Shown here in pieces: positions 5,967-51,017 of a stretch of 64,000 nucleotides of DNA. Position numbers and translations under genes: made by a program. The stretch lies in IMG/VR virus record IMGVR_UViG_3300021373_000005; one strand, given 5' to 3'. The stretch's first letter is position 1. The number at the start of each line of letters is the position of its first letter. Under the pieces are notes generated by a model. The model saw only the letters and a program-made list of their open reading frames with translations. It was not told where the DNA came from and ran no database searches. Origin of the DNA: a virus.

Positions 5967-6137
5967 TTCTTTTTTTCACTCCTGTGTGAAATTATAAATT
6001 AGGGTTAAGTGTTACCAAAGGTAACGCTACTATATATAACAGGGTTGTGAAAAATTGTGTTAAGGTTTTGTTAAACTTTCACTATTATGACCATTCATGA
6101 GATTTATTCTTTGACAAAAGTATAACACCAAAAGTGT

Positions 6138-46261: not shown

Positions 46262-48223
46262 TTAACCACCGTTTGGATTCAATAGTGCGTCAATACCTGC
46301 GGCACTAAAGTTATATTTTGAATTTGTAGATTTATCTGAGCTATCAATATTTGTCTGTGAATCGCCTGCTTTGATAATTGTGATTGCTTGGTCTGGAGTA
46401 ATTGCTCCGGAACTGATTGCATCTAATGCTTGGTTCATTACTTCTTCACTAGCTTTAAAATCAATTTTACCATCACCGTCAACATCAGATCCTTCGTAAT
46501 CTTCAAACATTTTTCTGAAGTCTTCTAATCTATCTTCTCGTCTATCGCTTGAGTCTTCCCATATATCTTTAAAGCCTTCCCAGAAACCTTTTGGTGCAAG
46601 ATAAATGAAATTGTCTTCATCAGCACCTTCAGCAACTCTCTTATCACGCCTTGCTTCTAATTCTGCCATTACTCTTAATTGTTCTGCTAGGTTTGCATCT
46701 CGTTGTGCTTGCAGTTCAGCAATTCTTGTAGCATCTGTTATATCAATATATGTACCACCGCCCATTCCGTCAGGAACGAACTGTTGATATACTCCACTCT
46801 CTTGTTGCTTTTTTGCTCTCTCTAATATATTCTTTTGTTTGTTTAGTTGTTCTGCTAAGACTGTGTCTGTTTCTAATCTTACTTCTTGGATTTGTTGGTC
46901 AAGTTGACTTTGCCCATCAATCATCGGTTCACCAGTTTCAGGATTTAAACCAGCTTGTATTCTTAAAGCTTTAAGTGATGCATCTGATAGAGTAAAGGAT
47001 GCATCTTCCGCGTGTCTCTTTAACATTTCTAACGCTGCTAAACGATCCGCTTCTATTTCATCCATTTTTAATCGTTCTTCAATTTCAGCAACATCTACCT
47101 TTTCTTCAGTTGTTCTTTGCATTGCTTCAAAGACTAATTTACCTGCACCAACAGCGGCACCAATTGCGAGTCCGATTAAGGCTCCTTTTTTTCCAAAATA
47201 TGAACCAAGTGTTGCACCTGCTGCAGCATAACCAGTAATTGAAATTGCTGTACTCTTCGGTGTTTGGAAATTAGCACGTTCTGCTTTTAATACTTCGTCA
47301 TCAGTTAAGTTTTCATAAGCTACGCTCTCGGCAAGTTTTTCTGTGATTCCGGCAATTGCTATCCCAGCCAATGCAAGCATACCACCCTTTAATGCTTTTT
47401 GAGCGCTGAAGAATCCTGGAGCTGATTTAATTTGGCCCGGTGACATTTTTGCCAATGTAGTTGTTAGGGCGTTTGTTCTTAATGCCTCTCCAACAATGTT
47501 AACTGCTAAAGGTGCACCAAAGTCAACTAATAACCAACTTCCAAGTACAGCGGCAAAAGCAGACCATTTATTACTAAATAATAAATCAGAAAACGATTTG
47601 ATTGATTGTCCAAGACCTTCCCAGTCAATGTCTTCAATAAATTTAGACATTGCTCCACCAGTAAATGCGTCAACAACTCCTCTTATAACATTGAACCCAA
47701 TAAAACCAATCATTGCGCCTTTTATTACTTTGGTCAAGAAACTTACAGGGTTAGACACCAATTGTCCAGTTACTGTATTTTCTTTTAGATTTTTTATATT
47801 TTCATCGCCTTGCTTTTTCAGACGATCTTTCTTTTCCTGTTCTTGTTTCTCTTTTTCTTCTAATTCTTTTCTAGTTAATTCAGCATCATCAAGATCCGCT
47901 TGACGTCTCATTTGGTCTCTTAACTGTTCTAAGACTTCTGTTTGGTCTTCTTGACCTTCAAATGCTTCCCTTAAAGCAGCGGCTTGTCCTGCTGCACCAC
48001 CGACTGATATTGTACCTTCCGCGCCTTCTCCTCCAACCATCTGTCTCATCGAAGCGGATATATCTGCTAATACCTGATTCATAGCATTAAAGCTTTCTTG
48101 GAATTTCTCAAGCTTAATGTTAACAGTTTTTATTGAATTAGTTCTACCATCATTACGCAATAGTCTGCCCTGCTCCGTTAGAGCATCTATTATTGCTTGT
48201 GTATCTGCACTTAATTCAGCCAT
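46262..48223 (-). CDS. Probable tail tape-measure/baseplate hub protein (gp29-like)
   Basis: 653 aa, coiled coils plus Gly/Ala-rich hydrophobic helices; position after gp26/gp51. Confidence 0.55.
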   Translation of the reverse strand: MAELSADTQAIIDALTEQGRLLRNDGRTNSIKTVNIKLEKFQESFNAMNQVLADISASMRQMVGGEGAEGTISVGGAAGQAAALREAFEGQEDQTEVLEQLRDQMRRQADLDDAELTRKELEEKEKQEQEKKDRLKKQGDENIKNLKENTVTGQLVSNPVSFLTKVIKGAMIGFIGFNVIRGVVDAFTGGAMSKFIEDIDWEGLGQSIKSFSDLLFSNKWSAFAAVLGSWLLVDFGAPLAVNIVGEALRTNALTTTLAKMSPGQIKSAPGFFSAQKALKGGMLALAGIAIAGITEKLAESVAYENLTDDEVLKAERANFQTPKSTAISITGYAAAGATLGSYFGKKGALIGLAIGAAVGAGKLVFEAMQRTTEEKVDVAEIEERLKMDEIEADRLAALEMLKRHAEDASFTLSDASLKALRIQAGLNPETGEPMIDGQSQLDQQIQEVRLETDTVLAEQLNKQKNILERAKKQQESGVYQQFVPDGMGGGTYIDITDATRIAELQAQRDANLAEQLRVMAELEARRDKRVAEGADEDNFIYLAPKGFWEGFKDIWEDSSDRREDRLEDFRKMFEDYEGSDVDGDGKIDFKASEEVMNQALDAISSGAITPDQAITIIKAGDSQTNIDSSDKSTNSKYNFSAAGIDALLNPNGG

Positions 48224-48235
48224 TTCTTATTCCTG

Positions 48236-48418
48236 TTAACCTCTGTTATTTTCCCGTGCTTCTTTTTGCTTTTCCAAAAACTCTAATAGCATTTGAAAAT
48301 ATAAATCTCTTTCCCAAGGCATCATACCTTCTATATCACTCAAACTCCATTTATGGTGTTGAGTTAAACCGAATATAATTTGATAATAATGCCCTAGACT
48401 TATATGACTAAGGCCTAG
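48236..48418 (-). CDS. gp51: gp51-like baseplate hub assembly protein; no start codon, probably made by -1 frameshift from gp26
   Basis: Own translation LGLSHISLGHYYQIIFGLTQHHKWSLSDIEGMMPWERDLYFQMLLEFLEKQKE; QHHKWSL..IE.M.PWER is the gp51 signature. Not in the ORF track. Confidence 0.8.
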   Translation of the reverse strand, partial: LGLSHISLGHYYQIIFGLTQHHKWSLSDIEGMMPWERDLYFQMLLEFLEKQKEARENNRG

Positions 48419-48427
48419 GTAAAAAAA
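48391..48427 (-). promoter_or_regulatory. Putative -1 ribosomal frameshift signal
   Basis: U-UUU-UUU, 6-nt spacer, 7-bp stem GCCUUAG/CUAGGGC with a 10-nt loop. Confidence 0.6.
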
Positions 48428-49116
48428 GTACGAATGCCCTCTACGACAAACGTCTTATCATCTCCATTACTATTTGTATATTTCAGTTCTTGTTTTAATT
48501 TTGGCATTGTTTCAAAAAATCTTGTGATCTTTTTAATTACGTCTCCAGACATATTATCCATAAAGTCAGCAATCTCTTGTTCACTATGTTCTTTAAATGA
48601 AATTACTTCATCTTCAGTTGCGATCTTATCTAAACATGCAACCATAATTGTATAATTCAATAATGGGTCGTTTGGACTCATCTCAAGAATACCAGCAAAG
48701 TCATCAATAGATGGGTAATTCAAAAATAAAACTAAGTCATCATTAATTTGAATTTCCTTAGAGTGTTCTGGGTCATGAATTACTTCCATTGTTTCAACAT
48801 CAAAATCAAGTTTAACTTGTTCCTTTGTGTCAGGATCTGTAATCATAAATTCTGTCATATTACTTACAGAGCTTGCTCTTAATTTTAAAAAGACATATTC
48901 TAAATCTATCATTGAGATGTTAGATACATCAACATCAAATAAGCAATTACCTACAACTTGCTTAATTGCCATCATTTCAGCATAAGGGTCTTTAGTCTCT
49001 GCTGCTACTAATAAAATCTTTTCTTCTTTAACCGTAAACGGTCTATATTTAATCTTCTCACCTGAGCTGGGTAATGCCAACTCATTCAAAGGTAAATCAA
49101 TTTTTGGTAATGCCAT
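48415..49116 (-). CDS. gp26: Baseplate hub subunit/assembly chaperone
   Basis: MALPKI...LPS.GEKIKYRPFTVKEEKILL, D.EY.FL.LRA.S, FFETMPKL, V.EG...FF. Confidence 0.9.
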   Translation of the reverse strand: MALPKIDLPLNELALPSSGEKIKYRPFTVKEEKILLVAAETKDPYAEMMAIKQVVGNCLFDVDVSNISMIDLEYVFLKLRASSVSNMTEFMITDPDTKEQVKLDFDVETMEVIHDPEHSKEIQINDDLVLFLNYPSIDDFAGILEMSPNDPLLNYTIMVACLDKIATEDEVISFKEHSEQEIADFMDNMSGDVIKKITRFFETMPKLKQELKYTNSNGDDKTFVVEGIRTFFT

Positions 49117-49940: not shown

Positions 49941-50555
49941 TTATCCTGCTATTATCTTTCTTGAATCTGCCCAAACGGTTCTAGCACCTTTTTTCTGGAA
50001 TTGCGATACTGGTAAGAATAAAGCAATGTCCCATTCAGAAGCTTCTATTTTAATAAACCTAGACTGAACGTGTTTTGCTAAGTACCTTTTAATACAAGGC
50101 TTAAATGCTTTAAACTGTCCTGCCTTTGCTAATACCTCATAGCTTAATTGTAATCTTGTATCTTCGTTATATCTATCATCACTCGATAAACTATACAACG
50201 CATCCATTAATTGTGCTCTTAACTGTGGTGGTAAGTAATGCATATTCAATCCATAGAAACCACCTTTTGCTTTATTTATTGGAAATACAAGTGGAAATGT
50301 ATCGTAATAAGGTAGATCCTCTTTTGTCTTTGGATCATATTTAAAAAAGTACATTTCTCCAATAAATCCTTCGCCTTGTAATCTTGCCTTGGATCTTCCT
50401 TTTTCTGTAGTACTTGTAATTGCTTCTGCTGTGATTTCTCGACCAGCTTTTGATGTAGCTTGGTTACGATACCATTCTCGGGCGGACTTTGTCCTAGCAG
50501 GTATTTCACCGCGTCTTACACCTTTTGCTAATATATCTGAAAATAAGGTTGCCAC
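49941..50555 (-). CDS. gp2: DNA end protector protein
   Basis: G.MYFF.YDPKTK..LPYYD.FPLVFP, GLN.HYLPP..RA, PC.KRYL..HV. Confidence 0.9.
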   Translation of the reverse strand: MATLFSDILAKGVRRGEIPARTKSAREWYRNQATSKAGREITAEAITSTTEKGRSKARLQGEGFIGEMYFFKYDPKTKEDLPYYDTFPLVFPINKAKGGFYGLNMHYLPPQLRAQLMDALYSLSSDDRYNEDTRLQLSYEVLAKAGQFKAFKPCIKRYLAKHVQSRFIKIEASEWDIALFLPVSQFQKKGARTVWADSRKIIAG

Positions 50556-51017
50556 TTATCGAGCTCCTGGAATATGTTTTTCGGTCATAATTGTAAATTG
50601 CCAACCTCTATCTGCACAAAAGGATTTTGCTGCCTTCCATTTGGCTTCATTGATTCCCCATGTTTTAACTTCATTTAAATATCTTCTTGATATTCTACCT
50701 GTCTTTGTTTTATTTTTATTCTTCGGATCTGGTGGTCTACATTGAGCACTTGGTTTAATCTCAATCATAATCGTTTGAGGATTACCAAGATTATCTTTCT
50801 TGTGTACTATCACATCCGGAAAATATCTGTGCACTTTACCATCTATCGGAGACCTGTAAGGAACAATCACTTCTTCGGATTGCCACCATATAACATCACG
50901 ATGCATATCCATCCATTTAAACACTTTAAATTCCCATAAAGACCTATAAATAATCTTAGTAGGATCACCTTTATACTTATCGGGATTTTTTGGTCTAAAT
51001 TTACCCTTATATGCCAT
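50556..51017 (-). CDS. gp4: Head completion protein (TnsA-like nuclease fold)
   Basis: YKGKF.P.NP.KY.GDP..I.YRSLWE, W.SEE..VPY.SP.DG..HRYFPD, IEIKP, NEAKW.AA. Confidence 0.93.
   Translation of the reverse strand: MAYKGKFRPKNPDKYKGDPTKIIYRSLWEFKVFKWMDMHRDVIWWQSEEVIVPYRSPIDGKVHRYFPDVIVHKKDNLGNPQTIMIEIKPSAQCRPPDPKNKNKTKTGRISRRYLNEVKTWGINEAKWKAAKSFCADRGWQFTIMTEKHIPGAR

Follow-up and report, generated by a model that had tools for sequence, protein, structure and literature searches.

How does a T4-like phage obtain the long form of a tail assembly chaperone when the DNA analyzed shows only one gp26-like gene and the gp51-like frame behind that gene offers no start codon ahead of its conserved core? 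The question is raised by a locus in the window, by which we mean the whole 64,000-nucleotide stretch analyzed here, from IMG/VR virus record IMGVR_UViG_3300021373_000005. An earlier note on this DNA had proposed that gp26 is fused to gp51 by a ribosomal slip and had taken such a frameshift to be undescribed in T4-like phages. The latter belief is probably wrong. The paper by Vladimirov, Gautam and Davidson (Virology 2022;566:9-15; pmid 34826709; doi 10.1016/j.virol.2021.11.003) reportedly identifies gp26 (TAC-N) and gp51 (TAC-NC) as the tail assembly chaperones (TACs) of T4-like phages. In two further papers, the same work is cited for poly-T -1 slippery sequences in T4-like TAC-N genes (PMC12846349) and for the statement that in some T4-like phages the short and long TACs come from separate genes in place of a frameshift (the PRFect paper, PMC10885494). 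Because the core idea of a poly-T frameshift in T4-like phages seems to have been published in 2022, we present this locus as a new example and not as a discovery.

Organization of the Locus

Two overlapping frames, the gp26-like gene and a -1 ORF, lie between a tube-family gene and a 653-aa tape-measure-like gene (Table 1). The 267-aa tube-family protein is similar to the protein annotated as "baseplate tail tube initiator" in Pelagibacter phage HTVC008M (E 2e-6), and the gp26-like protein has more than 7,800 homologues, the best 120 of which are almost all 233 aa long. Megablast of the locus against phage records gave no match, and an NCBIfam search likewise returned no matches.

Table 1. 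Features of the gp26/gp51 locus, in window coordinates
Feature	Coordinates	Strand	Remarks
gp4-like head completion gene	50556-51017	minus	
gp2-like DNA end protector	49941-50555	minus	
Tail-tube-family gene (gp54-like tube initiator), 267 aa	49131-49934	minus	directly upstream of the gp26-like gene; phrog_45 "tail tube", E 1.9e-35
gp26-like gene, short product (TAC-N), 233 aa	49116-48415	minus	PF12322, E 6.8e-50; phrog_150, E 1.3e-50; stop TAG 48417-48415
Putative slippery heptamer T_TTT_TTT	48427-48421	minus	X_XXY_YYZ phase; one codon 5' of the gp26 stop
-1 frame extension, matching the gp51 C-terminal tail	48421-48236	minus	61 codons from TAC (48421-19); stop TAA 48238-36
Hairpin	48391-48414	minus	7-bp stem GCCUUAG (48414-08)/CUAGGGC (48397-91), 10-nt loop; 6 nt 3' of the heptamer
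Tape-measure-like gene (gp29 position), 653 aa	46262-48223	minus	ATG at 48223; coiled-coil ends, Gly/Ala-rich hydrophobic middle

The gp26-like gene ends with the codons ACT (48429-27), TTT (48426-24), TTT (48423-21), ACC (48420-18) and TAG (48417-15), and it can be read directly from these letters, as the earlier note had done, that a -1 slip on U_UUU_UUU would enter the gp51-like frame. From stop to stop, this frame occupies 48454-48236, with TGA (48460-58) and TAA (48457-55) closing its 5' side. The first ATG, GTG or TTG that it contains is a TTG at 48343-41, which is codon +26 and falls within the conserved HHKWSLSD core, and its first ATG is found at 48325-23, codon +32; the earlier description of a frame that is closed upstream and that finds a start only inside its core is therefore accurate. 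The product of the slip would read ...GIRTFF|YLGLSHISLGH... and total 293 aa. Its -1 portion, from the slip onward, is YLGLSHISLGHYYQIIFGLTQHHKWSLSDIEGMMPWERDLYFQMLLEFLEKQKEARENNRG, and the predicted tryptic peptide across the junction is TFFYLGLSHISLGHYYQIIFGLTQHHK. The homology assigned to both frames also stands, with the PF12322 match for gp26 and, for the -1 peptide, a match to phrog_634 "baseplate hub assembly catalyst" (gp51) at E 1.5e-22 that is confined to the C-terminal end of the profile (positions 56-114 of 121).

The gene that follows, which the earlier note had rightly placed next in line, is less securely named. The syntenic gene of HTVC008M is annotated "putative tail tape measure", and ESM Atlas leads for the 653-aa protein include a PF25671 T4_Tape_measure cluster at 0.89 together with other TMP clusters. 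A tblastn search with this protein found nothing, Pfam gave no match, and PHROGs offered nothing useful. Its assignment as the tape measure is the weaker one at this locus and draws on position, composition, the HTVC008M annotation and the language-model leads.

Proposed Mechanism

With high probability, this tail assembly chaperone gene of a T4-like phage undergoes a programmed -1 ribosomal frameshift. The majority of ribosomes would read gp26 through to its TAG and release the 233-aa short form (TAC-N). A minority would slip back by one base with tRNA-Phe in both the P and A sites on U_UUU_UUU, where each tRNA could re-pair perfectly in the -1 frame, and these ribosomes would add 61 residues to give a 293-aa long form (TAC-NC) laid out as in T4 gp51. 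Slipping may be made more frequent by the zero-frame stop that comes one codon later and, in this lineage, by the hairpin 6 nt downstream. We infer the slip itself, the ratio between the two forms and their binding partners from the anatomy of the site, its conservation, the homology of the two frames and the similarity in fold that are observed below.

Conservation of the Slippery Heptamer

To follow the junction across relatives, we assembled 84 loci, consisting of the window, 80 IMG/VR loci whose gp26 is 55-99% identical, and three cultured phages (34-39%), namely Synechococcus phages S-WAM2 and S-ShM2 and the Pelagibacter phage HTVC008M. The sequence T_TTT_TT(T/C) is located one codon 5' of the stop in 82 of the 84 junctions, as T_TTT_TTT in 72 and as T_TTT_TTC in 10, and it persists while gp26 identity among the relatives that bear it falls to 34%, Kyanoviridae (T_TTT_TTC) included. 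The two exceptions are one relative (L037) with G_TTT_TTT and HTVC008M, in which T_TTT_TTT occurs one codon later and abuts the stop. Outside this set, the KVP40-like Vibrio phage D482 has the same arrangement, GAT-TTT-TTC-GTC-TAA-TG.

The manner in which the site varies is as informative as its presence. Among 68 distinct ORFs, the codon before the Phe-Phe pair ends in T in 67, although the residue that it encodes changes (S/T/A/N), and the first Phe codon is invariably TTT, whereas elsewhere in these genes 19% of Phe codons are TTC. Within the heptamer only the Z position varies, between T and C. The constraint on the slip site is on nucleotides and not on amino acids. The composition of the window adds to this picture: its 64 kb contain five T7/A7 runs, against an expectation of 72 +/- 10.5 from dinucleotide-preserving shuffles, and this strong depletion suggests that slippery homopolymers are avoided genome-wide. 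The five runs are located at 5970, 16257, 47186, 48421 and 59695, and the one at the end of gp26 is among the few retained. Because such runs are avoided in the window and because this particular run is conserved in phase across distant relatives, the arrangement of the heptamer is not a matter of chance.

A run of seven T's could also mislead a polymerase. If RNA polymerase were to add one U within the T7 run, some mRNAs would encode the fusion directly, and the predicted protein would be identical, which means that a comparison of sequences can only partly separate the two mechanisms. The homopolymer that such transcriptional slippage calls for is present; however, polymerase slippage usually needs about nine identical bases, and the junctions of S-WAM2, S-ShM2 and D482, along with 10 of the 84 loci, read TTTTTTC, a run of six T's that suits the re-pairing of tRNA-Phe. 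The pattern of variation, in which only Z is free, fits X_XXY_YYZ, and the hairpin follows the run on its 3' side, a position from which it would affect ribosomes. We regard slippage by the polymerase as improbable on these grounds and continue with the ribosomal frameshift.

The -1 Frame as a Coding Sequence

In each of the 84 loci, the -1 frame stays open over 55-64 codons, so that the conservation of slippery site and frame at gp26/gp51 junctions, which the earlier note had named as a check, comes out in its favor on both counts. The residues H5, L8, Y12, F16, Q20, H22, K23, S25 and E30 of the -1 peptide are invariant, and the tail is under strong purifying selection. None of the 84 loci contains a start codon in the -1 frame 5' of the slip. 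Depending on the lineage, the first start in this frame is at +2, +3, +6, +8, +14, +18, +19, +26 or +32, while the heptamer stays in place. Residue +1, which precedes every candidate start, is L, I or V throughout, and the gp26 codon that overlaps it varies among T, I, S, V, A and G.

These observations bear on a second alternative, in which the tail is a separate small protein that is translated independently, starting either at an internal near-cognate codon or, through reinitiation or coupling, behind the gp26 stop. Many records do list a "baseplate hub assembly catalyst" ORF of 45-60 aa, and 20 of 50 distinct relatives have an ATG or GTG that overlaps the stop of gp26 (TAATG type); in lineages of this type, reinitiation after the stop could yield a free tail peptide. 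For the window, however, initiation at the first ATG, GTG or TTG, at +26, would start beyond invariant residues and could not produce the conserved domain. Candidate starts wander from +2 to +32 against a fixed heptamer, and the conserved L/I/V at +1 is 5' of all of them. Taken with the fused T4 homologue discussed below, this makes independent translation a very improbable source of the tail, and the frameshift remains our preferred account.

The public annotation of the gp51 tail reflects the difficulty of calling it from start codons. The tail is absent from the S-WAM2 record (L001), and in those of S-ShM2 (L002), HTVC008M (L003) and Vibrio phage D482 (L085), it appears as an ORF of 45-60 aa whose start differs from record to record; none of these four records annotates a joined or frameshifted CDS for the tail. 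Likewise, the called ORFs of 627 cluster representatives that match the tail start at many different positions. In one group, probably cyanophages and comprising P0121, P0125 and about 25 other clusters, an ATG is found in the -1 frame exactly 14 codons 5' of the T run, and gene callers use it to give ORFs of about 80 aa. This ATG probably arises incidentally from a conserved Asn-Val (AAT-GTG) of gp26. A few database proteins (P0143, P0146 and P0167) have the gp26 C-terminus and the gp51 tail in a single frame (e.g., ...EGSANFF|LLILSH...), as either natural gp51-type long-form genes or homopolymer errors. In two others (P0176 and P0195), the frame of the gp51 tail runs on into the C-terminal half of gp26 or into an unrelated protein; these odd ORFs are probably artefacts of assembly or of circular permutation.

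That the T run is a homopolymer sequencing error within a single fused gene, or that the tail is a dead remnant, has a negligible probability: homopolymers are indeed error-prone and a few in-frame fusion proteins exist, such as those named above, but the same two-frame layout recurs across the 84 loci, which come from many independent samples, and is shared by cultured phages of three families, contigs from independent metagenomes (99%, 99% and 95% identity) retain the T7 run, which disposes of the sequencing error that the earlier note had named as a refutation, and the selection on the tail speaks against decay.

Relation to T4 gp26 and gp51

In T4, as the earlier note had stated, the two proteins come from separate genes: gp26 (208 aa) and gp51 (249 aa) are encoded by divergent neighbors and have been described as baseplate-hub assembly factors (PMC3004832). 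The same family is present here, as PF12322 and a gp51 tail. PF12322 matches T4 gp26 at E 8.8e-64 and residues 1-201 of T4 gp51 at E 3.9e-52, to be set beside the E 6.8e-50 of the window protein, and the last ~50 residues of T4 gp51 (~198-249) align without gaps to the -1 peptides, with DVF|KLL falling exactly on TFF|YLG. This profile match and the gapless alignment across the junction indicate that T4 gp51 is a gp26-like domain plus a C-tail, the same architecture that the slip would create here. The relationship is one that only profiles reveal, as pairwise BLAST of the window proteins against T4 gp51 and gp26 gave little or nothing, and for the tail nothing. A T4 homologue with its tail fused to a gp26-like domain also argues against a tail that is made on its own.

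T4 lacks the heptamer and keeps two divergent genes, where this phage has a single gene and, as proposed, a slip. No separate paralogous short and long genes of the T4 kind are found in the window, and the tail is in the -1 frame of the window's only gp26 gene. A complete genome of a relative (194.6 kb, with terminal repeats) contains one PF12322 gene only, and the long form in that clade would therefore arise only via recoding. T4 gp26 ends in ...GLKEFFELL (L004:3803-3830), with its Phe-Phe encoded by TTC-TTT, which is non-slippery, so that T4 is a natural control for the constraint on the site. In T4 gene 26, the peptide motif of the slip site would thus have survived without the slippery bases, as expected once the long form has its own gene 51.

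The comparison also offers an account of the short gp51 proteins noted earlier in marine phages. Sullivan et al. reported that cyanophage gp51 is ~20% of the T4 length and is without the first ~200 residues (Sullivan et al. 2010, PMC3037559). The short gp51 of cyanophages and marine vibriophages in that paper is the same short tail as that found here, but it is treated there as a reduced stand-alone gene, with no mention of a frameshift and no explanation offered. At the locus described here, the ~200 missing residues would be supplied by gp26 through the proposed slip. With the heptamer in 82 of 84 loci, in the pelagiphage and in the vibriophage, with residues conserved ahead of any start, and with a product that is colinear with T4 gp51, the frameshift reading of the earlier note is well borne out.

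Sequences Flanking the Slippery Site

The E. coli dnaX-type signal combines an upstream Shine-Dalgarno-like element, a slippery heptamer and a downstream hairpin. The window locus resembles it in having the heptamer, a 3' hairpin at a 6-nt spacer and GAGGG 9 nt upstream. It is unlike the dnaX-type signal in that the upstream element is inseparable here from Glu-Gly codons and that the hairpin is not conserved across the family.

The stem of the hairpin belongs to the minimum-energy fold (-10.9 kcal/mol), whose stability is modest: z is -1.7, and 13 of 200 shuffles do equally well. For 46 distinct junctions, the paired share of cells is 73%, compared to 61% in shuffles and 25-51% in slid controls, and the two outer stem pairs covary (GC, UG, CG, UA). 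RNAalifold found no consensus structure across the relatives, and Rfam gave no match at the junction, and no frameshift element. At least 6 of the 7 stem pairs are kept in 23 of the 46 junctions, at most 4 are kept in 19 of the 46, and the TTTTTTC lineages have essentially no structure at this position. The 7-bp stem that the earlier note had placed 6 nt after the heptamer is thus present in the predicted fold of the window, but it is not general, being absent in ~40% of lineages. The hairpin is plausibly a stimulator in this lineage, but it does not define the family. As for the upstream element, GAGGG or GAAGG is found 9 nt 5' of the heptamer and resembles a Shine-Dalgarno stimulator. We rejected it as evidence because it is fully dictated by conserved Glu-Gly codons; T4 gene 26, which is without the heptamer, has a Shine-Dalgarno-like AGAGG from Arg-Gly codons at about the same place.

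Fold of gp26 and the Comparison with Lambda G/GT

An AlphaFold2 model of gp26 (pLDDT 86.8) was compared to 48,161 PDB chains in a wide VIA-align search. The top three matches, all of which cover gp26 residues 1-93, were 3fgx_B (Z 8.2, rmsd 3.9, 84 aligned), 2ob9_B (Z 7.0, rmsd 3.3, 80 aligned) and 3klu_A (Z 6.6), followed by a phage-satellite protein at Z 5.3 and the rest at or below 4.3. We take 3fgx to be the tail assembly chaperone of Pell et al. 2013. The other two, the HK97 protein (2ob9) and YqbN (3klu), have been named as TACs (PMC9603447). When the same model was searched against the PDB by Foldseek, no match reached significance (2ob9, E 0.34). We have moderate confidence that the N-domain of gp26, as modeled, has the TAC fold, given that Z values of ~7-8 can arise from common arrangements. 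Residues 85-233 (window 48418-48862) gave noise-level matches only, to Hsp40/DnaJ C-terminal domains and small zinc-ribbon proteins (Z 2.8-3.7).

[quoted passage not shown] Xu et al. 2014 is cited on the same topic in PMC9603447. Lambda G/GT and this locus share overlapping frames between the tube-family and tape-measure genes, an in-phase heptamer near the end of the first frame, a second frame without a start, short and long products with a common N-domain, and a TAC-like fold of that domain. They differ in that gp26-51 has no detectable sequence similarity to gpG/gpT and in that gp26 is larger (233 aa) and has an additional region at its C-terminus. Since solved tail assembly chaperones are the best matches to the N-domain model, the analogy is strengthened, and the gene order and the fold result fit the lambda G/GT pattern. 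By this analogy, the tape-measure protein of the following gene would be coated by both forms, which may be made at the fixed ratio that the earlier note had proposed, and the C-tail of the long form would recruit hub or tube proteins.

Conclusions

A broader interpretation would join several of these observations, and we put it forward as a tentative and rather unlikely one. In its first part, the layout of a heptamer, one sense codon and a stop is common to Kyanoviridae, KVP40-like vibriophages and this uncultured clade, with HTVC008M differing only in being without the sense codon; one gene plus a slip would then be ancestral for the T4 superfamily, and T4 genes 26 and 51 would be a later duplication. 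In its second part, stimulators would be lineage-specific, with a hairpin here and none in the TTTTTTC lineages. In its third part, reinitiation in TAATG lineages may yield a free tail peptide as well, for a total of three products. All three parts would be new points if the 2022 work leaves out this marine clade or the geometry of the site.

Because the rule itself seems to be in the literature already, the value of the locus is in confirmation and in providing a well-documented test site, and no new principle is involved. A practical consequence is the correction of annotation: public records and gene callers have missed the tail or called it, from arbitrary starts, a "hub assembly catalyst" of 45-80 aa, and it should be entered as a joined CDS of ~293 aa. 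For the biology of these phages, the finding would mean that a large marine T4-like clade follows the long-tailed-phage rule for making short and long tail chaperones and that T4, with its separate genes 26 and 51, is the exception.
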